64,000 bases of DNA from a virus: positions 18,046 to 82,045 of IMG/VR virus record IMGVR_UViG_3300037587_000923; one strand, given 5' to 3'. This document shows, piece by piece, positions 15,031 to 51,500 of the stretch; position 1 is the stretch's first letter; every line of letters starts with the position of its first letter. The translations under genes and the position numbers were made by a program. The notes beneath the pieces are model-generated. The model saw only the letters and a list, made by a program, of their open reading frames with translations. It did not search any database and was not told the origin of the DNA.

Positions 15031-18000
15031 TTAAGCAGGCGCAAGCGTTGTTGCGGTTCCACTGGTTCCTACATATATCAATGCTCCGTTCTTTGTAGCC
15101 AATCTCCCATAAGTTCCACTTGTACCAGGTGTGCTGCTTTGAGACAACAATTCGATTATCCCTCCCCCTATCGCCCGGAGGGATATATTCCCATCACCGA
15201 CAAGGCCTGGATTTCCTTTCCCAACTACACCTATACTATTTGTGCTTTCCCCATAAACACCATAGTTATCAGTACTCTTTCCCCCAACTCCGCGAGAAGA
15301 AGTACTGAGTCCATAAACACCAAAAGAACTTGTACTTTGGCCTAAGACTCCTGTGCCACTGGTGTTGTCTCCATAAACTCCAACTGTCCCGGCTCCATTG
15401 CCCAAGCCTTTAACTCCGCCGCTGGTGCCAGCCCCGGTGGTTTGGCCAACAACCCCATGGTTAGAACTGCTACTGGTACTGCCTACAATGCCATCATTTG
15501 AGATGCTTAGGGCGCTTATAGCTCGCGCGGAACCGCTTAGGGCACGAAGAGCAATTCTGGTGCTATTGGCAGTGCCGAAGTAGCCGATTATATTGTCTGG
15601 TCCCTCCGTCCTGATCCCTATTGAGACGAGCTCCTCAATAGCTCCATCACCCCTGTTGCCGTAAAATCTCTGCTCACTCAAGGCTTCATCCATCAGGATA
15701 TTTTTTAAAGCAGGGATCACCGTTGAGTTGGTTGGATTGACCAGTAGCCCACTACAGCCTGTCAGCTGATCTCCCGATTTCCCAGTCCAACTAAAAGCAT
15801 CCCTGTCATTTGTCGTTCCCAATACCCACCCACTACCTGAGGTAGGGAAATCAGAAACATCTTGAAGGGCAAGGGTGGACTGTGCTGCCGATATTGAGCT
15901 CGGGTTATAACTTCCTTTCGTATGGTACTTTAAAGACTTAAGAGTTCCAGCCTGAATATCATCAGCATTAAGAGCGCCTCTTATATTCAAGACTGACCCG
16001 TCCCAGCTCAGATAATTAGTAGCATCACCTATCTCAAACTTGGCCTTATTGCTATCACTGTCGTCTATGCCAAGTATAAATCCTGCAGTGCTATCACCAA
16101 AGGCTGTCTTACCAGCCTGTATTGCTACATCACCAGTGGCTTCAGTAATTGCAAGAGTGATAACCTGAGAAGTTATGGTGCCAGCAGTAAGTTTATCTAC
16201 GGCAAGATCGTTTATCTTGGCATTGTTCACCGCAAGGTCTTCTATGTGGGCCGTCTGTACAGCCAGCTCTTGGATATAAGCCGATCCTATTACCTGATTC
16301 GCTATGGCATTCCATGCGAGGTCATGAGATCCACTTATATTGGTAGAAATAATGAACTGGCCATCAGAGAGGATAGGGTTTGTGTCTGAAGTTGAATAAG
16401 TCGTGCCACCGGTCCAGTAGATATATTTCTTGTCAGTATTTCCGCCCGTGATGCTGTATTCGGCACCATCATAGTAAAGTTTATGAGCATTCCACGTTAC
16501 ATAGTTTGCGGATGGCGAATCATCTGTCCAGCTATCTGCATCAAGAATAGGTATCTTCGTAAATATCTTGGAGGCTGTGATGGCGAAGTCATTGATATCA
16601 GTAGGCTCTACATTGAGTCCCTGAGCCGTTCCGTTAGCTGTGTCGGCGGAAGATTCCTGGCCGAACAGATCGACAGTTTTTACTTCAATAGTAATTACTT
16701 CGTCGGCCTCGGCTGTTATTAAAACTTCATTGCTATGTGTCTCTATCCATGAGCCAAAAGCGCCGGCGTCTATCTTATACCTATATTCGTAATGTGACAG
16801 GTCGGCATCTGTACTCTTTGCCCAGCTAAATTGAACGGAATCCATCCATTGACTTGATGCCAGCCCTGTAGGCGTTGTCGGGGTCGGATTCGTAAAAGTG
16901 CCCGTCACAGAGCCAGAGGCATTGTTGTAGATATCGTATGTTTTTAGGGCATAAGTGATGGATGGGTCAGCGCTCCCATTGTCCTGTATATTCTCATCGA
17001 GAGCATAGGCGTACTGTGCGTCTGTAAGCTTTATCTCTTTACTGCCGAGAGTTAGGCTGTGATAATTGAAATCGGTTTCTGTGGCCTCGGTCCATGAAAG
17101 CACGAGATCTCTGCCATTAAAATCTGAGGTGAGGCCTGTTGGATTTGCTGGTGCCGCCTGGCTTATTGTAATTTCGATATAGTCAGATACTCTATTGAAT
17201 TGATTCCACCGCCTGACCTTAAGCGCTACCGTTCCGTTGGCAGTAATTACCAGGCTATCAAGAAAATCTTCATAGCCATCTCCGTAGATATATTCGTATC
17301 TTAGCTCTCTTGTGGTGAAGGAGTGCTGGAGACTGTCTGATATCCATATCTCTACTTCATCGTATAGCCAATAGGGGTCGACGCCTACGCCACCTGCTCC
17401 TTGTAGCTCTCGTCCTGCAGGCTCACGCCCAGCTCCGCCTGTCTGTGAGGCACCCCTCCACTTGATCGCAAAGCGAAGTCCGTCCCAAGTATAGTTCATA
17501 GGGTCTGAGGCGCCTTCAAGTTGGAGGCCTGATGGTGTGGCTGGATCTACGGCTTGGCCATCTATCAGATTGGAGATTATGGGGGCAGTAGAGGCGTCCG
17601 CATAAATATTATTGGTACTGATCGAGACCACTCTGGCAGTCACAGTCTGGCCGACTTGGAATCTCCCTTGAGTTGCATCTATAGTGAAGCCAGTGCCCCT
17701 TGAAGTATCTTCTCCATAGTCAACATAGCTAGAACCTCCATCTGTGCTTATCTGGATTAGCGCCTTGTCCCAGAATATATTATCTTGTGGCAGATCATAG
17801 ATCAGGGTGAGGGTGGGCACGTAAGCACCATCATTATTGAAATATCCGTCTTCGGAAAGCGAGAGGTTAGTTGCATCATCAGGCGTAACAAAAGGCTTAG
17901 GTAGCGTTGTGAAAACTGAGACCTCTGGGATTATATCATTGATCGCATAAAACGCATCGTCGTAAAGCTCGAAAATATACGACACCTCTTCGTTTTCACT

Positions 18001-26990: not shown

Positions 26991-27230
26991 TTAGTCTTTG
27001 GATTTCTTCTCGGGTTCAGGCTTAAATGAAAGTATCTTTTTGACACTATCGTTTAGGCATGCCGAAAAGTTATCGTGCTTGCCGGTAAGTACATCCTGAA
27101 GAACACTATCTACATGAGACCTCAACCCTTTCCTGGGCTCCAGATATCCCATTATACCGGAAGCGCACTTCTTTTTATCTCCCGACCTCACCATTTGTTT
27201 CAGGTGATTTCCTATATGCATCTCTATCAT
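26991..27230 (-). CDS. Hypothetical protein
   Basis: ORF with RBS GGAGG in the structural operon. Confidence 0.5.
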   Translation of the reverse strand: MIEMHIGNHLKQMVRSGDKKKCASGIMGYLEPRKGLRSHVDSVLQDVLTGKHDNFSACLNDSVKKILSFKPEPEKKSKD

Positions 27231-35608: not shown

Positions 35609-35769
35609 TAATACTCCTGATCCACCTTTAACTTTGAATTTTGCCCTTTACTTATAGCTGCACTTTTTGGACAGGCTATTTTAAGAGTGATGGAAGTGCC
35701 TGCAATTACAAGCATTTATTTTTGGATTTAGGCATGCTGAAAAATATAAAAATAATTCCACTTTTCTTG

Positions 35770-35915: not shown

Positions 35916-36071
35916 ATGACTGATATGACTGAGAAAGAAATTGAAGTAGCAGACATCCTGTTAGAGGCAATAGTGAAAACAAGGAGTAAAAGACTATTTG
36001 GTATCACACGAGCAGTTTCTGATTACGCTCAATTTATTTCAGCGGCTTGTAAAAGGGCAAGTATTAATTAA
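35916..36071 (+). CDS. 51-aa ORF flanked by an 11-bp inverted repeat
   Basis: RBS AAGGAG; GGTGGCCAGCC (35877) and GGCTGGCCACC (36078). Confidence 0.55.
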   Translation: MTDMTEKEIEVADILLEAIVKTRSKRLFGITRAVSDYAQFISAACKRASIN

Positions 36072-36170
36072 CTAGAAGGCTGGCCACCGCTACAATAACG
36101 AGCGCCGGATTAGGCAAAAGACACCCTTTCGGGGCCGCGTTGATTAATTTTTAAACCCTTTGAGGTTCCT

Positions 36171-36392
36171 ATGAAATACGCAATAGAACAGAGATTAAGG
36201 TTGATAGATTTCCTTCTCTCTCAATACGGGAATGTGAATCGAAGCGCTATAATGGATTATTTCGGGATCGGGGAAGCGACTGCTACCAGAGATTTCGCTG
36301 AATATAAAAAACTTCGGCCTCGGAATATGGTTTATGACGGCAATGACAGAACCTACTATAAGACACAAAACTTTGAAAAAGAGTGGGTTTAA
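36171..36392 (+). CDS. Winged-HTH protein resembling the N-terminal domain of WYL regulators
   Basis: EQRLRLIDFLL..YG.V.R..I.DYFGI...ATRD..EY. Confidence 0.7.
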   Translation: MKYAIEQRLRLIDFLLSQYGNVNRSAIMDYFGIGEATATRDFAEYKKLRPRNMVYDGNDRTYYKTQNFEKEWV

Positions 36393-36404
36393 TTAGGAGA
36401 TTAC

Positions 36405-36641
36405 ATGAAGTGTAAATGTAGTAACTGTGGCTATGAGTGGGAAGCTAGAAGCGGCATGGAACCAAAGTCCTGTCCTTGCTGTAAGACTTACACCTGGAAC
36501 AAGGGTAAGGAAACTACAAAGAGATGTAAGTGTCTTTGTTGTGGTCATAAGTGGAGTGCTCGTGGAGGGAAGAAGCCAAAGTCCTGTCCTTGCTGTAAAT
36601 CCTATAAGTGGAATAAAAAGAAGGAGGTTGCCAATGCCTGA
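36405..36641 (+). CDS. Double Zn-ribbon protein
   Basis: Two copies of C..CG..W..R....PKSCPCCK...WN. Confidence 0.7.
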   Translation: MKCKCSNCGYEWEARSGMEPKSCPCCKTYTWNKGKETTKRCKCLCCGHKWSARGGKKPKSCPCCKSYKWNKKKEVANA

Positions 36642-36873
36642 GTGGATAATTCAAACTTTATATAGCGCTGCCCTTGGTGCCCTTGGGTGGGCCCTGATAG
36701 TAATATTATGCTACTGCATAACTCTCCTGACCAATAAGCTTTTAACGGCCAAGGTTGTGTTGGCCAACCAGAGGCTCCTTAATATTGAGCTGAAGGTTGC
36801 GGTCGAAGAAGGGAAGGTGGTTAGTATGGAAGAGTATAAAGAGTTCAAGCGTAGAGCTGAGGGGGGACTATGA
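36634..36873 (+). CDS. Small membrane protein
   Basis: RBS GGAGG, MPEWIIQ..., hydrophobic helix. Confidence 0.5.
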   Translation: MPEWIIQTLYSAALGALGWALIVILCYCITLLTNKLLTAKVVLANQRLLNIELKVAVEEGKVVSMEEYKEFKRRAEGGL

Positions 36874-37700
36874 GTAAGGATACTTATCTGGAAGGGTATG
36901 ATGCGGTGGCGGGAAAGAAGGAGTACATTACGTCATCTCAGATAGCTTCATTCTGTGAATGTGGAGTGGAATACCTCCGCAGGTATATTATGAAGGAGAA
37001 GACGGGCTACGGTTCTGCAGCAGCCTACGGAACAGCAGGGCACTATGCTGAGAATGAGATTAGTCTTCGCCCTAAAATAATCACCAAGAAAGATATGCCT
37101 CTCGATGTCGTTCAGGATGCGTTTAGAGACCACCTTCAAAGCATCAAGGGTGATATAAGATGGAACAAGAAAGAGAGGAAGGAGGGCGTAAGGAAGCTAT
37201 GGAGGGGGATGCAAGATGGCGGGATCATCGCAATGGAAAAGCTACATCTTGAGCTTGCCCCTAAAATTCAACCCATCTCCATCGAGGCCAAAATAAGAAT
37301 ACCCCTCAAGGACTTCCCTAAAGATATACTTGGCACTTGGGATATCGAATGCAGGAGAGATATCTGGGACTGGAAGTTTAAGGGTAAGACTCCAAACCAA
37401 GCTGATGCAGACGCCAATATAGGCTTTACTATCTACAATGCTGCCAAAAAAATTAACGATGGTATAGCGCCGCGCCACCTCCATATGGCAGGGATAGTCA
37501 AGCTTAAAAGAGGGCCAAAGACTTTCGACATTATCACTAAGAGGAATGACGATGATTTCCACAGGGTTCTTCTTACTGTCAATAAGATTCAAAAGTCTAT
37601 TGAGGCCGGGATCTTCCTTCCGGCCTCCCCATTATCGTGGAAATGTAGCCCAAATTGGTGTGATTTTTTTGAGACATGCACGGATAGGATCAAGAGGTAG
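36870..37700 (+). CDS. PD-(D/E)XK (RecB/Cas4-like) exonuclease
   Basis: S.SQI..F..C; G...H; GTWD...DWK; C-terminal W.C...WC.F...C. Confidence 0.8.
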   Translation: MSKDTYLEGYDAVAGKKEYITSSQIASFCECGVEYLRRYIMKEKTGYGSAAAYGTAGHYAENEISLRPKIITKKDMPLDVVQDAFRDHLQSIKGDIRWNKKERKEGVRKLWRGMQDGGIIAMEKLHLELAPKIQPISIEAKIRIPLKDFPKDILGTWDIECRRDIWDWKFKGKTPNQADADANIGFTIYNAAKKINDGIAPRHLHMAGIVKLKRGPKTFDIITKRNDDDFHRVLLTVNKIQKSIEAGIFLPASPLSWKCSPNWCDFFETCTDRIKR

Positions 37701-37703
37701 TCA

Positions 37704-38267
37704 TTGCCTAAGATTTATAAACACAAAGGTAAACTCACGGTCAGCATTAACGGGAATCATGTCAGACTAAAAGATCTTGCTAAGGAAGCTGGTATCTCTT
37801 GGGACACTGTCAGAACTCGCCGTTTCAACGGTATGGCTGAAACCCTAGAAATGGCTTTAAAGCCACCAAAAGGTATGGGTCAATAGTACCTTTCTAGTGG
37901 GTATCCAGCTGTTACTATTAACGGAAACCCAAAACACCTACATATCATAGTTGCAGAGAATGCATTGGGTCGGAAGTTGGGAGGAAAAGAAGAGGTTCAC
38001 CATTTTAACGAGGATAGGTGTGATTTTAGAAATAAGAATCTGGTGATATGTGATGGTAGAGAATACCACCTGTTGTTACACAGAAGAAGGGCTGCATTAA
38101 AAGCTACTGGCTATGCAAGCTCTAGGCGCTGCAAGATTTGTAGAAAATGGGACACCTTGGAGAGTGACGATCTTTATATCGACCCTAGCGGCAAGACTGT
38201 TTTTCACAAAAGCTGCAGAAGGCTGAAACGCAAATCAAAACGAAACACTAAACAGGAGGAAGTATAA
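37704..38267 (+). pseudogene. HNH endonuclease interrupted by an in-frame TAG
   Basis: TAG at 37884-37886; the same frame continues ...HIIVAENALGRKL..EEVHH.N.D..D.R..NL. Confidence 0.7.
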
Positions 38268-39403
38268 TGGAAAAAAATAAGGGTCTACAGCTAGTAGATA
38301 AAAAAGAAATGGCAGGGGGTGGTGGCTTTTCTCTTGCTCCAAGTAATCTAGGGGAGGCAATGGAGTTCGCCAAGATGATGGCTAATACAGACATGGTCCC
38401 TCGAGACTACGCTGGAAAACCTGCCAACATAATGATAGCTGTCCAGATGGGAGCCGAGATCGGCCTTAAACCGATGCAAAGCTTACAGAACATATCTGTG
38501 ATCAACGGCAGGCCTAGCGTGTGGGGAGACACCGCAATTGCATTAGTCAGGGTTCACCCTGACTGTGAGTCCATCAATGAATACCTTCTCGATAAAAATG
38601 GTAATAAGACCACTGGTACCGATTACGACACTGCAGTTTGTGTAGTGAAGAGGGCTGGCCAAGACGAAGAGATTAGGACTTTCAGCCTCGCTGACGCCAA
38701 AAAAGCCAGACTTATTGGTAAAACAGGGCCATGGTCTACTCACGAGAAGAGGATGTTGCAGCTGCGAGCTAGAGGTTTTGCTCTCCGTGATGTTTTTCCT
38801 GATGCATTAAAAGGCCTAGCGATTGCAGAGGAAGCTCAAGACTTACCACCTCGAGACATCACTCCTGCCAGGGAAGAAGTATTGACTCCCGAGTTCGATG
38901 TGCCCGTCATAGACACCGGCCGTAGTGTTATGGTTGAGGAGGTTGCCAATGAAGAAGTAGTTGATGCCGCCACTGGAGAGATCACTGAGGGGTCAGAGCA
39001 GAAGTCTGAGTCTGCCAAGATCGAGGATGACGACGCTCTCGATGCAACCGTTACCGGCATGATCGATCGTATTGAGAATATCGGTAATAAGTTCGAGGGG
39101 GATAACTGGCTGACCAAACATAGCTCTGAAATCAACAAGCTTCCGGAAGATGCCAAGGAAGTTGTTATGAACAACTACAAGGGGAAAATGGAAGATCTGG
39201 CATCGGAGGGTGTGGCCAAGGAAGAGGGATCAAAAGGTGACGAAGACTCCCTTGTTCTTGACTACATAAAGAAGCTGGAAAAACCTAAGAGCCTGGAGGA
39301 GCTTGACGCTATATTTGACGAGGCCCAGAATAAAATAAAGACCGGCGCAAAGGTTGTCGCCCTTCGTAAGGTTAGAGACAAGAAGGCACAGGATTTTAAG
39401 TAA
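38267..39403 (+). CDS. RecT-like single-strand annealing protein
   Basis: G.EIGL.PMQSLQNI.VINGRPS.WGD; W......ML..RA..FALRD.FPD.L.G. Confidence 0.85.
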   Translation: MEKNKGLQLVDKKEMAGGGGFSLAPSNLGEAMEFAKMMANTDMVPRDYAGKPANIMIAVQMGAEIGLKPMQSLQNISVINGRPSVWGDTAIALVRVHPDCESINEYLLDKNGNKTTGTDYDTAVCVVKRAGQDEEIRTFSLADAKKARLIGKTGPWSTHEKRMLQLRARGFALRDVFPDALKGLAIAEEAQDLPPRDITPAREEVLTPEFDVPVIDTGRSVMVEEVANEEVVDAATGEITEGSEQKSESAKIEDDDALDATVTGMIDRIENIGNKFEGDNWLTKHSSEINKLPEDAKEVVMNNYKGKMEDLASEGVAKEEGSKGDEDSLVLDYIKKLEKPKSLEELDAIFDEAQNKIKTGAKVVALRKVRDKKAQDFK

Positions 39404-39527
39404 CATTGGCATTGAGGGGCCGCCGGATTGATGGCAACCTCTTTCAAAAACTGAGTGGCGGGGAAAGCCGACTCCTGTAAAAATCAGACAGATGTTTAGG
39501 CGGTCACTCTCGAATAACTGGTTATGA
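39398..39527 (-). repeat. attC-like site A1
   Basis: TAAC..ATTGAGGGGCCGCC / GGCGGTCACTCTCGAAT..GTTA; extra C on the minus-strand left arm. Confidence 0.75.
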
Positions 39528-39543
39528 AACTTGGAGGTAGAAA

Positions 39544-39744
39544 ATGAACACTACAGAGCAACGCATGGCGGCAATATTTAACGAGTGGGCAAAACGTTAT
39601 TCTGAGAACCCTGACGCTTTCGGGCCTATATTTGATGATGAGGGGAAGCCGGTCACCGACTATGGAGTAAGATGCGCACGCTATTTCAAAAAGGTAGCCG
39701 ATGAAATGGACAGCAAGGGGATATTACCCGCACCTGTTTCATAA
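39544..39744 (+). CDS. Cassette gene, hypothetical
   Basis: Bracketed by GTTATGAAAC / GTTTCATAAC (10-bp perfect complement). Confidence 0.7.
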   Translation: MNTTEQRMAAIFNEWAKRYSENPDAFGPIFDDEGKPVTDYGVRCARYFKKVADEMDSKGILPAPVS

Positions 39745-39801
39745 CGCTTGAGGTAAGCGGAACGAGCGTAGCGAGTTTCCCACTTGAGCGAATTGTTATG
39801 T
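39739..39801 (-). repeat. attC-like site A2
   Basis: TAACGCTTGAGGTAAGCGGAA...TTCCCACTTGAGCGAATTGTTA; closely similar to A8. Confidence 0.8.
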
Positions 39802-39822
39802 TGAAACTTTTAACTATAGGAG

Positions 39823-40155
39823 ATGCTGATAATGACACCTGAAATTAATAAAAAATATTTAATTACGACCGATAATTGGTTTTTGGCACCTGATGGGAAT
39901 AGTTATCGCGCAGTATTTGGAACTGTCATAGGAATACAAACAGACGAAAATACATTGGGAGTTAAAACGAATAGAAGCTCGACAAACTGGTATGTTGCTA
40001 TCGGGAATATGTTGATCGCTGGTTGTCAAATACATTATGTAATCCAAGTGGATGAGGTAAGCTTTAACGCACCTAATAGAGAAATAGAGCACGATGGTAA
40101 ATTAACTAAAGAGAGGGAAAGCATAACAAGAATATATAATGCCGATGAAACATAA
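39823..40155 (+). CDS. Cassette gene, phage-type hypothetical
   Basis: TTDNWF.APDG..YRAVFG motif; GTTATGTT / AACATAAC brackets. Confidence 0.7.
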   Translation: MLIMTPEINKKYLITTDNWFLAPDGNSYRAVFGTVIGIQTDENTLGVKTNRSSTNWYVAIGNMLIAGCQIHYVIQVDEVSFNAPNREIEHDGKLTKERESITRIYNADET

Positions 40156-40348
40156 CGATTGAACTAAACTGCGGCGAAAGGAGAATATCATGAAATGGGA
40201 ATGTGGAAATTGTGGACACAAGGTTACTGAAAAAGAAACTGTTGAAGGTGGGAATAAAGAATGGAAATGCCCTAAATGTTCTAATATCAATAAGCATGAA
40301 AAAAAGAAAAGCGCGTTGAGCCGTCAGATTTGAGTGACTGGGTTAGGC
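40150..40348 (-). repeat. attC-like site A3 (loop encodes an ORF)
   Basis: ACTAAACTGCGGC versus minus-strand ACT[C]AAA[T]CTG[A]CGGC. Confidence 0.8.
40190..40333 (+). CDS. 47-aa Zn-ribbon peptide inside the attC loop
   Basis: RBS AAGGAG; MKWECGNCGH...WKCPKCS. Confidence 0.65.
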   Translation: MKWECGNCGHKVTEKETVEGGNKEWKCPKCSNINKHEKKKSALSRQI

Positions 40349-40371
40349 CGCACGAACCTTAGGAGGTAAGT

Positions 40372-40560
40372 TTGGAAAAGCCAGAATATTTAAAAGATGA
40401 ACATTTAAAATATCTAAATGAGCTGAAAGAAACCAAAATGGTACCCATGTTTGGAGCAGCATCTACCTTGAGATTATATTATGATTATCTGACAAAGGAG
40501 CAAGCCAGGAAAATATTAGCCTATTGGATAGACACATTTCAAGAGAGACATGCGGCATAA
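40372..40560 (+). CDS. Cassette gene, hypothetical
   Basis: NMFGA-like motif (PMFGAA..L); GTTAGGCCGCA / TGCGGCATAAC brackets. Confidence 0.65.
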   Translation: MEKPEYLKDEHLKYLNELKETKMVPMFGAASTLRLYYDYLTKEQARKILAYWIDTFQERHAA

Positions 40561-40757
40561 CAATTGAACTGTGCCGCTTGCAAAATTAAAGGAGAAAACC
40601 TATGAGTGGAGTTATAGACTTACCCTGTGGATGCACAATGGATGATTATTCAGGACTAGCACTTTATGTTTGCCAAGCGTGTAGAGAGCGCAAGAAGAGG
40701 CAAGAGACTTCAGAACGCGACAGCGTTTTGCAAGTCGGAACCAGTGATGGGTTAGAC
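40555..40757 (-). repeat. attC-like site A4 (loop contains a gene start)
   Basis: ACTGTGCCGCTTGCAAAA versus minus-strand ACT[G]GTTCCG[A]CTTGCAAAA. Confidence 0.75.
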
Positions 40758-40916
40758 TGCCCCCTTTGTGCGAAGATGGGGCCGAAAGAAGTTTATGAAA
40801 AGTGGGGCTTTGATTATGAAGCAAGATATAAAGACACATGCAAAGCGCATAGACCGCTAATGCTTGAGAGAATGGAAGATGGACTGAACAAGTTGAAAGA
40901 GCTTCTGGCAGACTAA
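40602..40916 (+). CDS. Cassette gene starting inside the attC, Cys-rich
   Basis: RBS AAGGAG in the loop; reads through the arm; GTTAGACTGCC / GGCAGACTAAC brackets. Confidence 0.65.
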   Translation: MSGVIDLPCGCTMDDYSGLALYVCQACRERKKRQETSERDSVLQVGTSDGLDCPLCAKMGPKEVYEKWGFDYEARYKDTCKAHRPLMLERMEDGLNKLKELLAD

Positions 40917-41272
40917 CAAGACAAGCTAAGGGGCTTGAACGAACGCAGTGAGAGAAAGTCCAAGGAGTGAAACGACTGTCTTTGAGCGCCTGGGTTATGT
41001 TTTTTGATATGACAGGGCAAAAAATCGGAGGTTATTATGGACGACATAGCAATAAATGAAGGTCAAAAGATATTTGAAGAAAGATATAAAAAGGGATTTC
41101 CAAAAGTGATATTTGGGGAGACGCACATCTCAATTCCTTGCACTTGCGACGATGGCGGTGGGCCTATTCACTGGGCAACAGTGCAGAACAACATAAGATC
41201 GATAGAAGAACATTTCCGGCATGAGGAGACTTTGCGTGAATTAAGGAAAATGGATAGGGACAAAACATAACG
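40914..41272 (+). repeat. Duplicated unit copy 1 (attC A5 plus 77-aa gene 41037-41270)
   Basis: 359 bp that read identical to 43242-43600. Confidence 0.9.
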
Positions 41273-41355
41273 TTGCCCTTAACCCGCACCTGAGCCAAGT
41301 TCCTATGAAATTGGAGACACCTTTAGGTGTCGGTGGTTCAAGGGCTTGGTTATAA
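41265..41355 (-). repeat. attC-like site A6
   Basis: GCCCTTAACCCGCACCT versus minus-strand GCCCTT[G]AACC[AC]CG[A]CACCT. Confidence 0.8.
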
Positions 41356-41376
41356 AACTTATCTTACGGAGGACTT

Positions 41377-41544
41377 ATGAAAGCTGAAATAAAGAAAGAT
41401 GGATTTATTTGGATAACCGCTGAAGACGCAACAGAGGCATTCGCGCTTAATCATTTAGTGCCAGTTGGTGACAAGGCGGAGGTGTGTAAAGAGTGCAACC
41501 AGGTTAAAATACCCGTTGTTATAGATGCGAGCGTATTAAACTAG
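41377..41544 (+). CDS. Cassette gene, 55 aa
   Basis: RBS GGAGG; GTTATAAAACT / AGTTTTATAAC 11-bp perfect brackets. Confidence 0.65.
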   Translation: MKAEIKKDGFIWITAEDATEAFALNHLVPVGDKAEVCKECNQVKIPVVIDASVLN

Positions 41545-41550
41545 GCAGTT

Positions 41551-41611
41551 TTATAACGAACAAGTTAAAGGGACGCTGGAACAGCGTTCCGCTTTGAACG
41601 CCTGGTTCTGA
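41551..41611 (-). repeat. attC-like site A7
   Basis: GTTAAAGGGACGCTG / CAGCGTTCCGCTTTGAAC; ends in GTTC. Confidence 0.8.
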
Positions 41612-41636
41612 GGCGTGTAACTTAAAAGGAGAAGAC

Positions 41637-41768
41637 ATGAGACTGATAATTTTAACACTTGGAATATGGGCATTGATGCATGTTGGATTTGACTTCGACT
41701 GGATGAGGGTTTTATGGACTATGGGGCTGACTGTTTATGCCGCATGGTATGATTTAATAAAGCCTTAG
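41637..41768 (+). CDS. Cassette gene, 43-aa membrane peptide
   Basis: RBS AAGGAG; GTTCTGAGGC / GCCTTAGAAC compensatory brackets. Confidence 0.6.
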   Translation: MRLIILTLGIWALMHVGFDFDWMRVLWTMGLTVYAAWYDLIKP

Positions 41769-41825
41769 AACGCCTGAGGTAAGCGGAAGCCGGAACGGCT
41801 TTCCGACTTGAGCGATTTGTTAGTT
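41765..41825 (-). repeat. attC-like site A8
   Basis: GAACGCCTGAGGTAAGCGGAAGCC...GGCTTTCCGACTTGAGCGATTTGTTA. Confidence 0.8.
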
Positions 41826-41855
41826 TGGATCTTGACTTTAAGGAGAGGCGACTAA

Positions 41856-42707
41856 ATGGCAAGAATTAAGTATACACAATGTATGGTAAGAGACTGCGAA
41901 AAGCCCCATCTATCTAAAGGCTTCTGTAATAGGCATTATCAGCAAATGTGGAAGCATGGACGCATTCTGCCTGATGCGGTGCCTATTGAAGACTTGGCCG
42001 GAGAGTTATGGGCTGACATTGAAGAGGCTGAAGGGTATCAAGTTAGCAATATGGGGCGTGTTAAGTCTCTTGTGGGCCGTGGCGGGTTAATAAAGCCACA
42101 GATCGAACAAAGGGGGCACATGAATACCCCTAAGAAGCGTGTCTATTTAGACAGGAGGGCAACAAGAGGCTGGGTTAAATTCTTGTATGTTCACCTAGAG
42201 GTAGCCAGGGCCTTTATCCCTAATAAGTTTGACAGCGCCCACACGACCTTTAAAAACGGGGATGCCTTAGACTGCCGTGCTGATAATATCGAATGGTGGT
42301 GGGAGAATCCACCTGTAGATGATGATGGGTTGATTCAGTTTAGAAAGTCGGTTCATTCTGAATTAGGGAAAAAGGTTCTGGCCTTTATTGATGGCAACCA
42401 GTCTGCCCTCGATAGTTTCGTAATGCAAAAGACTGACAAGATGAGGAAAATACTACAGAGTAAATTCAAAGGGGTCTGCGGAGACAATGTAAACGAAGCG
42501 GTGCACGTTGCTTTCAGTGAAGGCATGAGAGACATTAAACGCGGATTGCTTAGGGCAGACACACATATAGAAAACTGGTTCCTTCGGATTGCAGAGAACC
42601 AACTATTGGATGATATTAAAAAGAACAAGCACACTACATCTCAATGGGGCTGCAATGGTAATGGCGACGAGTTCGACAAATTTGATTTAATGGCGGCAAC
42701 AAACTAA
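41856..42707 (+). CDS. Cassette gene: Zn-finger + NUMOD4/degenerate HNH + sigma region-2-like domain
   Basis: C.V.DC.....KG.C.RHY; E.W..I...GYQVSN.GRVKS; VH..VA.AFIPN; NW..RIA.N..LD. Confidence 0.65.
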   Translation: MARIKYTQCMVRDCEKPHLSKGFCNRHYQQMWKHGRILPDAVPIEDLAGELWADIEEAEGYQVSNMGRVKSLVGRGGLIKPQIEQRGHMNTPKKRVYLDRRATRGWVKFLYVHLEVARAFIPNKFDSAHTTFKNGDALDCRADNIEWWWENPPVDDDGLIQFRKSVHSELGKKVLAFIDGNQSALDSFVMQKTDKMRKILQSKFKGVCGDNVNEAVHVAFSEGMRDIKRGLLRADTHIENWFLRIAENQLLDDIKKNKHTTSQWGCNGNGDEFDKFDLMAATN

Positions 42708-42788
42708 CTATGAATTAACCAGTGGCCCGACCAAGCCACACTGAAAACGGACACGCCTCTTGCCATCTGGTTGAATGGCGTGTTATAA
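42702..42788 (-). repeat. attC-like site A9
   Basis: ATTAACCAGTGGC versus minus-strand ATT[C]AACCAG[A]TGGC, the canonical extrahelical pattern. Confidence 0.85.
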
Positions 42789-42812
42789 ATTTTGCATTAG
42801 GAGGGTAATTAG

Positions 42813-43244
42813 ATGAGAGGATATGCGTGTATAGGGTTGGATAACCCCAAGGCGGCAGTTAACGTAGGATCGGCTTTGAGAGCCGCAGGGTGCTATGGGG
42901 CTGCAATGGTGGCTATGACGGGCAACCGGAGCGGAAAGACACCCACTGACACCATGAAGCAGTATCGACATAGGCCGTTGTTGCGCGTTGAAAATTTGAA
43001 AGATGTTATTCCTTATGACTGCGTGCCTGTGGCAGTTGATTTGATAGAGGGAGCTATTCCATTGCCAGAGTATGAACACCCCGAAAGAGCCTTTTATATC
43101 TTCGGGGCTGAAGATGCCACCCTGGGCGAAAGAGTGACATCTTGGTGCAGGGACACTATATATATTCCCACTAACGGTTGCATGAATCTAGCAGCAACGG
43201 TTAATGTGGTGCTATATGACCGGCTTGTTAAGCAAAATTTATAA
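42813..43244 (+). CDS. Cassette gene: SpoU/TrmH-family RNA methyltransferase
   Basis: NPK...NVGSALRAA; IFGAED; IP...CMNLAATVNVVLYDR; 14-bp perfect brackets GTTATAAATTTTGC / GCAAAATTTATAAC. Confidence 0.85.
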   Translation: MRGYACIGLDNPKAAVNVGSALRAAGCYGAAMVAMTGNRSGKTPTDTMKQYRHRPLLRVENLKDVIPYDCVPVAVDLIEGAIPLPEYEHPERAFYIFGAEDATLGERVTSWCRDTIYIPTNGCMNLAATVNVVLYDRLVKQNL

Positions 43245-43600
43245 CAAGACAAGCTAAGGGGCTTGAACGAACGCAGTGAGAGAAAGTCCAAGGAGTGAAA
43301 CGACTGTCTTTGAGCGCCTGGGTTATGTTTTTTGATATGACAGGGCAAAAAATCGGAGGTTATTATGGACGACATAGCAATAAATGAAGGTCAAAAGATA
43401 TTTGAAGAAAGATATAAAAAGGGATTTCCAAAAGTGATATTTGGGGAGACGCACATCTCAATTCCTTGCACTTGCGACGATGGCGGTGGGCCTATTCACT
43501 GGGCAACAGTGCAGAACAACATAAGATCGATAGAAGAACATTTCCGGCATGAGGAGACTTTGCGTGAATTAAGGAAAATGGATAGGGACAAAACATAACG
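43242..43600 (+). repeat. Duplicated unit copy 2 (attC A10 plus 77-aa gene 43365-43598)
   Basis: Reads identical to 40914-41272. Confidence 0.9.
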
Positions 43601-43635
43601 ATTGACTATATGGACATTTAATGTTGGTGTGAATT

Positions 43636-44007
43636 GTGAATAAGTATTATAAGCAAGTAAAATATAGACAGAATCAGAGAGATAAAAAAGAATGTTACCG
43701 TTTAAATTCTACTGATACGATTAGGGAATCTTATTATCAGCCACCTGAATTTAGAGGATTGAGGATATATGGAGATTGTGATCTCGGTTATCTTAGACTT
43801 ATTTACATTTCTCTATGGGAATGTGGACGTTTAGATTCCTATTACATACGCAACGAAAAAGTAGAAAATATTGGTAAGCGTCCAAAATTAAATGATGACA
43901 ATAGCGATTGGTGGATTGACAGTAATGGAAATCGTAAAAAATATGGCAAGGTTAATCTTGATAAGAAAATAAGAGAACTGATGCCGAATATAAGGAGGGC
44001 GGATTGA
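43636..44007 (+). CDS. Hypothetical protein
   Basis: AT-rich ORF coupled to the next gene. Confidence 0.5.
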   Translation: MNKYYKQVKYRQNQRDKKECYRLNSTDTIRESYYQPPEFRGLRIYGDCDLGYLRLIYISLWECGRLDSYYIRNEKVENIGKRPKLNDDNSDWWIDSNGNRKKYGKVNLDKKIRELMPNIRRAD

Positions 44008-44504
44008 TGAATTGCTTCCTAGGTAGGGTATACGACGACAAGCATGCCACTTGCATTTCCTGTATTAGGGCAGGAGAGAAGACTTGTAAGCAGGTCAAGA
44101 AGAAACGTAAGGCCCACGATATTCATACAGTTATGGCTGAAGGCAAGTGGCTTATGTGTACTAAAGACCTCAGAACCCCTAATGACTGGACCAACAAGAT
44201 GTACGGTAAGAAGATTTATAGGGGAGAGAGGTCTGCCTGGGAGAAACAGTTCAGAGGGATAATCCATTTATGGGGTAAGGCGTCAGGTAAGAGGCGCCTT
44301 ACCGTTATACGGTATGTTCCTGACAAGCGGTATCTCATGAAAGATAAGACCAATAGAGAGGGAGCCATGAAGCCTCTTGAGGATGCGCTTGTTAATCAAG
44401 GAGTACTTGTTGACGACAGGGATGAGTTCCTGGAGCGTGCCGACCTCAGGCAAGAGATAGATCCGGCAAGAGTAGGGGTAGCTATCTTAGTGGAGGATAT
44501 TTAG
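44004..44504 (+). CDS. RusA-like Holliday junction resolvase
   Basis: D..N.....K...DAL...GVL.DD motif. Confidence 0.7.
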   Translation: MMNCFLGRVYDDKHATCISCIRAGEKTCKQVKKKRKAHDIHTVMAEGKWLMCTKDLRTPNDWTNKMYGKKIYRGERSAWEKQFRGIIHLWGKASGKRRLTVIRYVPDKRYLMKDKTNREGAMKPLEDALVNQGVLVDDRDEFLERADLRQEIDPARVGVAILVEDI

Positions 44505-44787
44505 GCATGCTGAAAAAAAATTGCCTGGAGATAGTAATATATGACGACAAAGGCAATAGGTGTTGTTTTTCTCTTGACACCCTTTTCATTACTTTGATAG
44601 GGTGCGCTTACATTCCAATTTAACCTTTTGACAGAGGTACGAAGGATCAAATGAAAACCACTTTTAAACATAGAGAAGCCCACTCGAGCCAGAGCAATCT
44701 GGAGCAGGTCCCTTTTGGTCCACCTGTCTGTCAACTCGTGTGGGCTTCTGTGTGTTTAGCCCAATCCCAAAGAAATAAAGGTGTTAT

Positions 44788-45612
44788 ATGAGTAGATCAA
44801 GACGATGTAAGGCCGGGCTGGACTACTTCTCGTTTGATGTTGATTTCTTTGACGACGAGAAAATTGAGTTCGTATCAGCCAGATATGGCTTGAAGGGCGA
44901 GGTAATTTCCATAAGGCTTTTGTGTCGGATTTACCGTAATGGTTATTTTATTAAATGGGGTGATGATGAAAGCTTGCTATTCGCAAAGCGTGTCGGAGAC
45001 GGTGTCACTCAAGAAGATGTTAAGTGTGTTGTTGACGAGCTGTTCAAGAGAGAGTTCTTAAGTAAGTCTTTATTCGATAAATGTGGCATCCTTACATCAG
45101 GCGGAATTCAAAAGAGATATATCCAAGCAACCGAACGTAGGAAAGGTGTGGAGATGATTAAGGATTATATAGCTGTAGACATTACAGATTACGATGTAGA
45201 CATTTTAGAATTAAATGATGACATTTCAAAACAAAGTAAAGTAAAGGAAAGTAAAGTAAAGGAAAGTAAAGAAGACTATAAAATTTCTTTCTCTGAATTC
45301 TGGGAGGTATATCCTAGTCGTAACGGTAAAAAGATAGATAAGCCTACCACTAAAGATAAGTTCTATAAATTAAAACCTTCGGATCTGTCAGACATTATTG
45401 TGGCAGTCCATAACTACAAAGACAGTGAATTAGTTAAACAAGGAATTGGCATTAAAGACCCTCATAGATTTATTAGCAACAAAGACAATAAAGAGTTTTG
45501 GAAAGAATGGATGAAGCCTGAGATTAATAATAGCAAGAAACAAAAGAGCCCATATGAAGCCCAAAACGAAACTAGGGCTTATCATAAACCAATTAAAAAC
45601 AGAGGACTATAA
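44788..45612 (+). CDS. Replication initiator (DUF4373/Lin1244-like N-terminus)
   Basis: GLDYFS.DV.FF.D.KI; LTS.GIQKRY; F.EFW..YP; directly upstream of DnaB. Confidence 0.8.
   Translation: MSRSRRCKAGLDYFSFDVDFFDDEKIEFVSARYGLKGEVISIRLLCRIYRNGYFIKWGDDESLLFAKRVGDGVTQEDVKCVVDELFKREFLSKSLFDKCGILTSGGIQKRYIQATERRKGVEMIKDYIAVDITDYDVDILELNDDISKQSKVKESKVKESKEDYKISFSEFWEVYPSRNGKKIDKPTTKDKFYKLKPSDLSDIIVAVHNYKDSELVKQGIGIKDPHRFISNKDNKEFWKEWMKPEINNSKKQKSPYEAQNETRAYHKPIKNRGL
45174..45272. repeat. Putative replication origin within the initiator gene
   Basis: GACATT at 45178, 45199 and 45220 (21-bp period), followed by purine-rich AAGTAAAGTAAAGGA repeats. Confidence 0.5.
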
Positions 45613-46985
45613 TGGAACAACCTGGCAGATTACCACCACAAGACCTTGATGCTGAACTTTCTGTCCTGGGAGGTTTGGTTGTAGATAGCGATAAATGGGG
45701 CGAGGTTAACGCTATCATCTCTGCATCTGATCTTTACCGACAATCCCATAAATATATATTTAACGCCATAGGCTCTTTAATATCAAAAGAGGAGCCAGTC
45801 GACTTACTTCTTCTTAACTCTGAACTGAAAAACATGGGGGTTCTGGAGGAAAGTGGCGGGACTGGGTTTATAGCACGTATTGCCGATGGTGTAGTAACAA
45901 CAGCAAACATAACCTATTACGCTAATATAATCAAAGAGAAGGCTGTCGCCCGAAATGTTATATCGATAAGTCAGACTGCTATAGCTTCGTTGTATGATGA
46001 CGGCAATGTCGTCGATGTAGTTGACGCCCTTAAGCAATCAGCTATGGGGGTAAGTTTCGATAAAGGTGATGTGAAGGTCCACACCATGAAGGAAGTGATC
46101 ATGTCATCCTTTCAAGCTATCGAGGAGGCCCATGAAAAAGGCGAGCCTATAGTTGGAGTTCCCTACGGATTTGCAGCCCTCGATAGATTTACGGCAGGAG
46201 CTATGCCAGGGGATCTTATAGTTGTAGCTGGAAGGCCAGGCATGGGTAAGAGTTTGTTTACCGGAGAGGTAGTTATTAACGCAGCCCATAATGGCTATCC
46301 TTCTGTATTGTTCTCCGCAGAGATGTTGATGCAACAATATGGCAAAAAAGTGCTATCATCCAGAGCCAGAGTTCTCCATACCAGAACAAGGACCGGTAAG
46401 ATTGAGGAGTCCGATTGGGGTAAGCTTACGAAAGCCGCTGGGTTTTTGTCAGAAAAGAAAGTCTTTATCGTCGACAAGGGCGGCCTGACCCTAAGTGAGA
46501 TTATCTCCACTTCCGAGAAGTTAAAGATGAAGCACGACATTAAGGCTATTGCTGTCGACTACCTCCAGTTGATTAAGATGAAGAAGATACCAGGGGTGAA
46601 GAGGGAGGAAGAGGTCTCTAAGATCTCATACGAGATGAAGAGCCTGGCCAAACGCCTTGAGGTTCCCGTATACCTTCTATCGCAGCTCAACAGGGAAGTT
46701 GAGAAGAGGCCCGACAAGAGGCCTATTATGTCTGATCTGAGAGAGAGCGGGAGTATAGAGCAGGACGCAGATGTTGTTATATTGCTCTACCGCCCAGAGG
46801 AATACTTTACAGACGGAGATATAGACAGGATCTATAAAGGCTGGGGTAGAGAAAAGCCATCTACGATCAAAGACCTCCTCGAGTGCATTATCGCAAAAGG
46901 TAGGGATATTGAAACAGGCACCGTATTCTTGAAATCAGAGATGCGGTATCAGTCTATATCAGACCTTAATCCAATGGGTTTTTAA
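45612..46985 (+). CDS. dnaB: Replicative DNA helicase
   Basis: AGRPGMGKS, VDYLQL, LSQLNR, SDLRESGSIEQDAD. Confidence 0.95.
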   Translation: MEQPGRLPPQDLDAELSVLGGLVVDSDKWGEVNAIISASDLYRQSHKYIFNAIGSLISKEEPVDLLLLNSELKNMGVLEESGGTGFIARIADGVVTTANITYYANIIKEKAVARNVISISQTAIASLYDDGNVVDVVDALKQSAMGVSFDKGDVKVHTMKEVIMSSFQAIEEAHEKGEPIVGVPYGFAALDRFTAGAMPGDLIVVAGRPGMGKSLFTGEVVINAAHNGYPSVLFSAEMLMQQYGKKVLSSRARVLHTRTRTGKIEESDWGKLTKAAGFLSEKKVFIVDKGGLTLSEIISTSEKLKMKHDIKAIAVDYLQLIKMKKIPGVKREEEVSKISYEMKSLAKRLEVPVYLLSQLNREVEKRPDKRPIMSDLRESGSIEQDADVVILLYRPEEYFTDGDIDRIYKGWGREKPSTIKDLLECIIAKGRDIETGTVFLKSEMRYQSISDLNPMGF

Positions 46986-47522
46986 ATGGACTCCCTTCAA
47001 GAATTACTAACGATTGACGGCGACTCAGAGAGTCCCTCTCATGAGATGTATGTAAAACTTCAACATGCTAAAAAGTTGGTTGCCATGGGTATCTTCGCAA
47101 CTGGGGCCATACTTCACTACATGAAACAGTATGATCTCTGGCAAGGATATGCCGACTCCTGGAATGAATTCTGTGCCTCTGAGGCGCATTCATATAGCTT
47201 CGCACACACGGCCATGAGGTTGTATAAGAAGTACGTCCTTGAGCTCAGGCTGTCAGAGGATACTATTGACGCATTGATGGCCCGTGACTATACTTCACTT
47301 GATGCCGCAACTAAAGTTATCACGGAAAAGAATTCTAAGGAGTGGGTAGGTAAACTCCTTACCCTTAGCAGGCAGGATATCACCAAAGAGATAAGGGTCA
47401 CTCAAGGTAAAGACGAGATCCAGCAAACAGAGATAGATAAGGTTGTTATTTTATTCTTCTCTCTAACTTACGAAGAGCGGGAAGAGGCATTACAACGCAT
47501 AAATGAAAGGAGACAAGGATGA
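46986..47522 (+). CDS. Hypothetical phage protein
   Basis: LW..Y.SW.EF motif; operon context. Confidence 0.6.
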   Translation: MDSLQELLTIDGDSESPSHEMYVKLQHAKKLVAMGIFATGAILHYMKQYDLWQGYADSWNEFCASEAHSYSFAHTAMRLYKKYVLELRLSEDTIDALMARDYTSLDAATKVITEKNSKEWVGKLLTLSRQDITKEIRVTQGKDEIQQTEIDKVVILFFSLTYEEREEALQRINERRQG

Positions 47523-47785
47523 ACAAGACCGATATTATCGAGGAGGTTGCGGCCAGGACGGGCCTGCCAAAAAGAAAGATCGGTATCGTGATAAATCAAG
47601 CCTTTGACGTGATAAAGGATGAGGTTGCGGCCGGCAAGAAGGTTACCATAAATACGTTCGGTTCATTCTTCCTAAAACAACTTAAAGGGAAAACGATCAA
47701 GCTGGCCATAGGAGGAGTTCATGATATGCCAGCCGGTGAGGTGCCTAAGTTCAAGGCCGCCCCAGGATTCAAAGAGAGGGTGTGA
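47519..47785 (+). CDS. HU/IHF-family DNA-binding protein
   Basis: MNKTDII..VA..TG; G.KV.I..FGSF; PKFK. Confidence 0.9.
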   Translation: MNKTDIIEEVAARTGLPKRKIGIVINQAFDVIKDEVAAGKKVTINTFGSFFLKQLKGKTIKLAIGGVHDMPAGEVPKFKAAPGFKERV

Positions 47786-47790
47786 GGTCA

Positions 47791-47915
47791 ATATAACATT
47801 GAGTTCAGCAGGACCGGATTGAAAGCAAACACATTGGAAGAGGGAATGAACATGAAAGGCTTTTTGATTAAAATTAAAAACAGTGTTAGGGATCGGCTGC
47901 AACGTGGGGTTATTT
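47791..47915 (-). repeat. attC-like site B1
   Basis: TAACATTGAGTTCAGC / GCTGCAACGTGGGGTTA; minus strand reads GTT[G]CAGC. Confidence 0.65.
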
Positions 47916-48148
47916 GCGAATATGAGGCAGATAGATTATGGATCATTACAAGCTGGAGCTGGTGGAGGCACAACCACGGGATGCCATTTTGGAAGGCAGT
48001 GCGATGGACTTTTATGACCGATGTGTGGGACAAAATAGATAATTTTTATTGTGGAATATGGTTGCAGACAAGGGGCCGCTATTTACATTGGAAAGTTGAA
48101 AAGCAAAAAGTTGAAATATGGAAGCGAATTAAAGAGAAAAGCAAATAA
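47846..48148 (+). CDS. Cassette gene starting in the attC loop, Trp-rich
   Basis: GTTATTTGC / GCAAATAAC brackets; reads through the arm (DRLQRGV). Confidence 0.55.
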   Translation: MNMKGFLIKIKNSVRDRLQRGVICEYEADRLWIITSWSWWRHNHGMPFWKAVRWTFMTDVWDKIDNFYCGIWLQTRGRYLHWKVEKQKVEIWKRIKEKSK

Positions 48149-51438: not shown

Positions 51439-51500
51439 ACATAATGATTAAGCTAAACCGCCGCGCCATTTGCGGTCGGATTTTCAGCGCCTTGTTATGG
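51439..51500 (-). repeat. attC-like site C1 (core AAC mutated to AAT)
   Basis: GCTAAACCGCCGC / GCGGTCGGATTTTCAGC..GTTA. Confidence 0.7.

Follow-up and report, generated by a model that had tools for sequence, protein, structure and literature searches.

Integron-type recombination sites are usually treated as non-coding punctuation of ~60-140 nucleotides (nt) between gene cassettes; cassette finders limit the size of a site, and gene callers take each cassette as a self-contained gene. Qi et al. (2023, PMC9892861) reported arrays of the CALIN type (clusters of attC sites lacking integron integrases) from phages. The present analysis concerns two attC-like sites, A3 and A4, in a 64,000-nt stretch of viral DNA (the window, bases 18046-82045 of the 82,045-nt IMG/VR virus record IMGVR_UViG_3300037587_000923), in the loops of which open reading frames (ORFs) begin. 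A3 and A4 are probably attC-like hairpins of an integrase-less phage cassette array whose loops carry gene starts, the protein heads begun in the loops and the bodies encoded by the cassettes being modules that reassort, a reading that is held here with moderate confidence.

The terminal loops of attC sites are normally short, as an earlier note on this DNA had stated, but its addition that they are normally non-coding was too strong: short ORFs occur in the attC sites of class 1 integrons, and ORF-11 and ORF-18 lie in attI1 (Hanau-Bercot 2002 and Jacquier 2009, as reviewed in PMC8876359). Among published precedents these come closest, and they weaken the word "non-coding". Like the ORF-11 type as reviewed there, the ORFs at A3 and A4 are led by a Shine-Dalgarno (SD) sequence inside the site, reach or cross its core, can take their stop from core or arm, and would serve cassettes without a start. 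Unlike that type, which has 11-18 residues and acts by translational coupling, they are longer (47 and 51 encoded residues) and contain paired Cys motifs, the head begun in A4 is joined in frame to the protein of the cassette, and such heads reassort with several bodies. The same review describes cassette proteins that gain an N-terminus and a start from upstream sequence; those fusions arise by loss of an attC site, whereas A4 is still a complete site that carries the head inside its loop. There is also a likeness to the promoter-early stem-loops (PeSLs) of T4-type phages, which, as described in PMC2839356, are repeated between small early genes and mark points of exchange. PeSLs consist of a sigma-70 promoter and a terminator stem-loop, whereas neither is in excess here, and the present array has AAC/GTT cores and complementary cassette ends.

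With the attC and CALIN arrays described in PMC9892861, the locus shares AAC/GTT triplets, at A3 an imperfect hairpin with an unpaired spacer and bulges, and throughout stop codons in the inverse core, complementary cassette ends, co-oriented small genes and the lack of a nearby IntI. The best label for the array would be attC-like and CALIN-type, in a phage. It differs from published attC sites in that A3 and A4 measure 191 and 195 nt, with loops of ~130-145 nt that hold a coding start region and a protein, against a published loop range of 20-100 nt (Cury et al. 2016, PMC4889954); in that the bulges of A3 lie on the 3' arm of the coding strand; and in that both cores of the array are module borders. 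Supplementary files aside, a literature search listed no paper in which the loops of attC-like sites in phages are described as coding for proteins or as containing the starts of genes, or in which heads and bodies are joined in frame at such sites.

When the arms of A3 (Table 1) are paired, there is an R box of 4 base pairs (bp), followed by a spacer of 6/6 nt and a stem of 13 bp, the three bulges of which are all in the 3' arm. Its loop holds an SD sequence and an ORF of 47 amino acids (aa), referred to as ORF47, as the earlier note had recognized; the last five codons and the TGA fall within the 3' arm, the stop lying 8 nt before GTT. The same arms are found in B1, the left arms of the two sites differing at 5 of 27 nt. 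A3 and B1 align with a single 137-nt gap, located in the loop; 31 of 34 cells pair on the named structure, as compared with 26-47% in six slid controls; two pairs have changed on both sides and are thus compensatory; and the bulges are at matching positions. Because B1 has the same arms, a 7-nt loop, a one-gap alignment and covariation, A3 can be regarded as a normal site with a loop insert. A shuffle control, in which the observed value was reached in 120 of 500 shuffles, means little because it involves two sequences only.

At A4, the SD directly follows the left arm, and the SD and a Cys-rich head lie in a loop of ~135 nt. From there the frame of ORF104 spans the 3' arm and the GTT core, which is read GGG-TTA, enters the cassette body and ends at a stop codon within the TAAC with which the next site opens, much as the earlier note had described. 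The first internal ATG of the body (40776) is without an SD (+0.9 kcal/mol), and the conserved Cys pair of the body lies upstream of it, indicating that the body relies on the loop for its start. The A4 frame runs into a body that has no start of its own, and therefore the loop would supply both the translation start and the N-terminal head. One contig of another sediment metagenome (X2) joins 40588 to 40700, skipping 111 nt; only one base separates the joint from the codons for the 18 invariant residues of A4-type heads, which begin 3' of it. This joint is weak evidence for what would be an 84-nt core site with a 111-nt insert. The inner-arm duplex of A4 has -15.5 kcal/mol (DNA parameters), a value reached by only 0.02% of 14,914 background windows taken from the phage genome. 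In a 9x9 matrix of left and right arms the cognate A4 pair scores -16.1, ahead of the runner-up in the same row (-9.6) and in the same column (-11.0). The exact right-arm pattern of A4 had no match in viral and metagenome contigs. The proposal in the earlier note that these loops serve as coding space thus stands, with an SD and ATG opening each insert, by virtue of B1 for A3 and of the X2 joint for A4.

The heads and bodies of ORF104 and its relatives are mosaic. An exhaustive phmmer search of 1.84 billion representatives, together with a word-index search, returned five relatives. Two of these (P0003 and P0008) carry an A4-type head, the last 18 residues of which are identical, followed by two other, unrelated bodies; the remaining three (P0005, P0002 and P0007) combine three other heads with the same body (72-79% identity to the whole query). 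Among the six proteins, ORF104 included, the A4-type head is found on three bodies and the ORF104 body behind four heads, and the Gly-Leu at the join, encoded in ORF104 by the GGG-TTA of the core, is invariant (6/6). P0005 is an 87-aa ORF in a second phage contig of 21 kb (G001, L004), where it starts after an SD inside a site bounded by TAAC and GTT cores. BLAST of 39400-43700 against all of G001 gave a single match of significance, at 40743-40917 (87% identity, E 4e-58), which takes in the body from shortly 5' of GTT up to the following TAAC; the E values of six further rows were >= 0.04. Between the window and G001, the body has a dN/dS (the ratio of nonsynonymous to synonymous divergence) of 0.12 at a dS of 0.55, demonstrating purifying selection on the ORF104 body.

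Further searches with these proteins and sites returned nothing more: no longer protein with the A4 head was found, tblastn of ORF104 against GenBank phages was without a match, as were P0003 in metagenome contigs, an alignment-based viral scan, viral scans with P0003 and ORF62, and the S5 pattern in viral contigs. The ESM Atlas had no match at 0.9 or above; its model of ORF104 has a predicted local distance difference test (pLDDT) score of 0.59. Several candidates were rejected. L002 and L003, from pattern scans of viral contigs, are 344-aa proteins with one short peptide in common with ORF104; L005, from a scan with ORF110, has an unrelated context; L013, from a scan of genome contigs, is a 763-aa protein sharing one motif; and P0004, a 1060-aa Cys-rich protein (E 3.8e-4), was taken as a compositional match. 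A 38-aa ORF of G001 (L004 1775-1891) was considered as a third loop gene and dismissed, its 17-18-nt inverted repeat being of the body-end type and not the interior of a hairpin. A hairpin in the same contig (L004 1624-1738) has AAT...ATT in place of AAC...GTT and a perfect 15-bp stem. The 38-aa ORF, which is hydrophobic, belongs to the body that comes next (L004 1734-1919), the complementary ends of which are unusually long (17-18 nt).

ORF47 looks like coding sequence. Its codon log-likelihood is 0.150 per codon in frame, like that of neighbouring genes, and -0.07 and -0.78 off frame. The SD duplex of ORF47, like that of ORF104, has -8.7 kcal/mol as compared with a median of -7.9 for 37 long genes; an equally strong SD is present at 5.5% of all ATGs. 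A single-sequence AlphaFold2 model of ORF47 has a pLDDT of 73 and four short strands. The two CxxC pairs suggest that the peptide itself may matter, and both ORF47 and ORF104 are probably translated. ORF47 and ORF104 match each other in BLASTP at E 1.8, and PHROGs gave weak matches only (ORF47 at E 0.005, P0005 at E 0.004).

The array itself begins after a RecT-family gene and consists of small plus-strand genes alternating with imperfect hairpins that start ...TAAC and end GTTA.... Counted from AAC to GTT, the nine AAC...GTT sites other than A3 and A4 measure 53-95 nt. Cassette ORFs stop in or abut the AAC core in 8 of 9 distinct cases. The ends of the cassette bodies are complementary, which is a signature of integron cassettes: in a count that covers eight rows, the two 77-aa rows being left out, 4/8 bodies have 8, 9, 11 and 14 leading perfect matches and three further bodies are complementary at 10-11 of 14 end positions. 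The ORF62 body has 11/14, and one body (66 aa) just 4/14.

Based on these observations, the following mechanism can be envisaged. Each site would be of ordinary size (~54 nt for A3, ~84 nt for A4), with its terminal loop enlarged by an insert of 137 or 111 nt that opens with an SD and ATG, and translation would leave the insert via the 3' arm, reading the GTT core as GGG-TTA in the frame of the ORF at both sites. In A3, a TGA in the arm would close the frame, so that the product would be a separate protein of 47 aa containing two CxxC pairs; the cassette that follows would use its own start. In A4, the frame would remain open across the GTT core and continue into a body without a start signal of its own. 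Heads and bodies would then be separate modules that reassort at the GTT core, the sites presumably folding and recombining as single-stranded DNA. A wider formulation is possible but tentative, and somewhat less than an even proposition: that these phages assemble proteins at the level of their DNA, the hairpin loop being a second cargo slot, and heads being joined to start-less bodies when recombination takes place at the GTT core, in every case in the GGG-TTA phase, so that small Cys-rich early proteins are built combinatorially in a manner resembling exon shuffling without introns, with a recombinase that would not be a classical integron integrase.

If so, a site of this kind would also provide the start of translation and the N-terminal module of a protein, and the natural relatives show recombination of heads and bodies in frame; it is chiefly this in-frame modularity that is of interest. 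Were it general, it would provide a route to new small phage proteins and account for cassettes without a start signal of their own, and annotations of phage cassette arrays would be wrong where they treat sites as long and "degenerate" or ORFs as split. Long loops have been reported to reduce recombination by up to 10^4-fold in replicative conditions, but not when the DNA arrives single-stranded (PMC8946536). Concrete pairs for studying the effects of loop length on folding and recombination are A3 with B1, and A4 in its full form with A4 minus the 111-nt insert.

A number of results, given in this and the following paragraphs, weigh against this reading of A3 and A4. The arm duplex of A3 has -9.4 kcal/mol (DNA parameters) and is equalled by 5.3% of the background windows; in the 9x9 matrix, the A3 left arm pairs better with the right arm of another site (-12.0) than with its cognate (-9.8). 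By itself the A3 arm energy is thus marginal. A3 might be seen as two half-sites, the remains of different sites between which an ordinary cassette of 47 aa formerly lay, and a solo left core without a partner does exist at 43596-43610. This is hardly probable, since the one-gap alignment with B1 spans both arms, with the same bulges and two compensatory changes, two precise deletions would be needed, and ORF47 is without the GTT...AAC ends seen on bodies. The X2 joint for its part rests in a single contig of depth 3.4, with a 27-nt side and the entry "between: not known".

The homology of ORF47 is a further difficulty. No homologue was found among 5.8 billion clusters, nor did tblastn against GenBank phages give a match. 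Its matches to Zn-ribbon families of Pfam are sub-threshold, the best being PF23783 at 22.3 bits against a cut-off of 27.3, and Foldseek with the ORF47 model returned nothing at E <= 0.001, the top rows being Zn ribbons at E 0.8-1.7. The expectation of the earlier note that loop ORFs are conserved is therefore borne out for the A4 head, which has relatives, and not for the 47-aa ORF.

The relatives of ORF104 carry reservations of their own. Four of them (P0002, P0003, P0007 and P0008, from ENA contigs of 1047, 538, 890 and 1927 nt) are known from protein sequence alone, their SDs and left arms unseen, and the short Cys-free heads of P0002 and P0007 could be extensions made by a gene caller. 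At a dS of 0.55, moreover, the drop in identity 5' of the body could in part reflect weaker constraint and not exchange. These points touch on the notion that ORF104 is an ordinary single gene, in which arms and core are incidental or secondary and the mosaic arises from uneven divergence and domain loss. Consistent with it, the heads of ORF104 and the G001 protein share a loose CG...C..CRE pattern, the two bodies at that dS are not recent copies, and the tail of P0003 is faintly like the body (E 0.095). Nevertheless, the change in identity at the core is abrupt both ways, with three matching heads on three unrelated bodies and one body behind four unrelated heads. Furthermore, a single gene accounts neither for body ends that are complementary at 10/11 positions nor for an arm duplex as rare in the background as that of A4, and this explanation is considered very unlikely.

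Folding predictions agree with the proposed sites only in part. That the arms pair, as the earlier note supposed, holds for isolated A3 RNA, which forms the long stem in its minimum free energy (MFE) structure, the pairs having probabilities of 0.6-0.9; the A3 stem drops to a probability of ~0.33 under DNA parameters. It does not hold for A3 in a 500-nt RNA context, in which the stem disappears, or for the MFE structure of A4, in which 40668-40686, a partner closer by, takes up the left arm and the distal arm forms local structure. This second partner of the A4 left arm lies inside the head coding sequence, and 40706-40735 can form a local hairpin. The alternative pairings could be alternative structures or a trace of the origin of the insert.

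The hairpins might instead be elements of the mRNA that govern its processing, attenuation or stability, with the loop ORFs as leader peptides whose translation melts the stem, as proposed for the attC ORFs of class 1 integrons in the review cited above (PMC8876359). The hairpins are on the coding strand, and the long stem of isolated A3 RNA would suit such a role. Opening the start region, however, costs just 2.4 kcal/mol for ORF47 and 4.3 kcal/mol for ORF104, towards the lower end of a range of 2.3-9.4 over 16 genes; the start regions are thus accessible. Holding the A3 3' arm single-stranded lowers the cost at the ORF62 start from 7.9 to only 7.5 kcal/mol. The suggestion of the earlier note that hairpin folding gates translation is therefore not upheld, and these values equally count against an mRNA role. 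The A3 stem needs no G-U pair (0) and that of B1 1 in 17, the region has no Rfam match at E <= 1, 47 codons with two CxxC pairs are unlike a leader peptide, and complementary cassette ends together with hairpins in foreign contexts point to the level of DNA. An mRNA role thus appears quite improbable.

A further objection to an integron-like process is that no integron integrase is present in the record, which is an estimated 72% complete; with the integron-integrase model TIGR02249, for which the cut-off is 265 bits, its sole tyrosine recombinase (333 aa) reaches only 26-27. The record has no Y1 transposase, and contig G001 has no tyrosine recombinase. The lack of IntI would be expected if ordinary homologous recombination were responsible, the hairpins being linkers common to co-infecting phages, the contents between which are swapped by a phage annealing protein of the RecT type; breakpoints would then appear at the cores because homology ends there. 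Such a RecT-family gene lies directly 5' of the array, and exchange at PeSLs, with mini-circles, is documented in T4-type phages (PMC2839356). Contigs of a cold-seep metagenome and of a second sediment metagenome contain copies of whole hairpins (S0, S6, S9 and S5/S10) that differ at 0-11 positions and stand between flanks that do not match.

An exact duplication of 359 nt (40914-41272 = 43242-43600) comprises hairpin S5 and a 77-aa gene, with flanks that differ on both sides; it begins at TAAC and ends one base past the next TAAC. All bulged bases of A3 and B1 are in the 3' arm of the plus strand. The assignment of a strand from the position of bulges uses canonical attC geometry. These two observations agree with the inverted layout put forward in the earlier note, whereas other homology borders and contig breakpoints are also at the GTT core, four contigs diverging at G|TTAT of S5 (40993), which does not. 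AAC and GTT cores thus both serve as module borders, and crossover may take place at either. Borders at both cores are unpredicted by a one-crossover integron model and favour homologous exchange. On the other hand, linkers do not require that body ends be complementary over 8-14 nt, which the excision of a circle closed by one hairpin would explain, and the duplication ends exactly within a 4-nt TAAC on both sides. A PeSL-like arrangement is likewise not apparent, since neither promoters nor terminators exceed their counts in shuffles: 11 sigma-70 promoter-like sites were found as compared with 12.7, although the promoter types of other hosts may differ, and 5 intrinsic terminator-like sites as compared with 5.2. 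Homologous exchange is regarded as less likely, though a serious alternative, and attC-like sites with gene starts in their loops as the better account of the array.

Table 1. Positions in the window of the features discussed.
Feature	Position	Strand	Size	Description
RecT-family gene	38267-39403			immediately 5' of the array
A3	40154-40344	+	191 nt	AAC at 40154, GTT ending 40344
A3 left core and 5' arm	40153-40175	+		core TAAC
A3 terminal loop	40176-40319	+	144 nt	SD AAGGAG (40178-40183) and most of the 47-aa ORF
A3 3' arm	40320-40345	+		three single-base bulges; GTT core 40342-44; ORF47 TGA 40331-33
ORF47	40190-40333	+	47 aa	ATG 40190; CxxC at residues 5-8 and 27-30
ORF62	40372-40560	+	62 aa	cassette body between A3 and A4; own SD, TTG start; stop inside A4 TAAC
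A4	40559-40753	+	195 nt	AAC at 40559, GTT ending 40753
A4 left core and 5' arm	40558-40588	+		core TAAC
A4 loop insert	40589-40699	+	111 nt	SD 40589-40594, ATG 40602, head codons 1-33 (variable part)
A4 conserved right block	40700-40753	+		remaining loop, 3' arm, GTT core 40751-40753; encodes 18 residues identical in 3/3 A4-type heads
ORF104	40602-40916	+	104 aa	loop-encoded head (residues 1-51) and cassette body (residues 52-104)
ORF104 cassette body	40751-40917	+		GTT core to next TAAC; ends complementary 10/11
S5	40915-40996	+	82 nt	next ordinary site downstream of the ORF104 body; exact copy is S10
B1	51443-51496	+	54 nt	short-loop homologue of A3, 11 kb 3' of A3; loop 7 nt
S0			95 nt	
S1			55 nt	
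S6			83 nt	
S7			53 nt	
S8			53 nt	
S9			79 nt	
Recurring hairpins	39401-39524, 41267-41348, 42705-42787, 43236-43321			flanks elsewhere unlike this 5.4-kb stretch

In the window, the structural genes are on the minus strand at ~6-35.6 kb, and the early genes are closely packed on the plus strand. The stretch is present in sequencing runs from marine-sediment and cold-seep metagenomes, with no RNA run among those listed for it, and megablast of 36000-48000 against GenBank phages gave no match. At the end of the duplication, a solo left core (43596-43640) has 13 nt identical to the left core of A3. For the core itself (43596-43610), neither a complementary right arm nor a GTT core was found within 1.6 kb 3', the best duplex (-11.4) lying inside an ORF; it may be a broken site or a half-site. 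One cassette body (41856-42707) is a 283-aa gene resembling homing endonucleases of the NUMOD4/HNH type, with 9 perfectly complementary end bases. A near-identical copy of S1 (39740-39795) is found at genome position 15456-15511, ~2.5 kb 5' of the start of the window and 42 kb from S1. Finally, an identical 19-mer is present at two intergenic turning points (35726-35744 and 44499-44517), with a third copy (84%) at 27051, and may be a regulatory motif.

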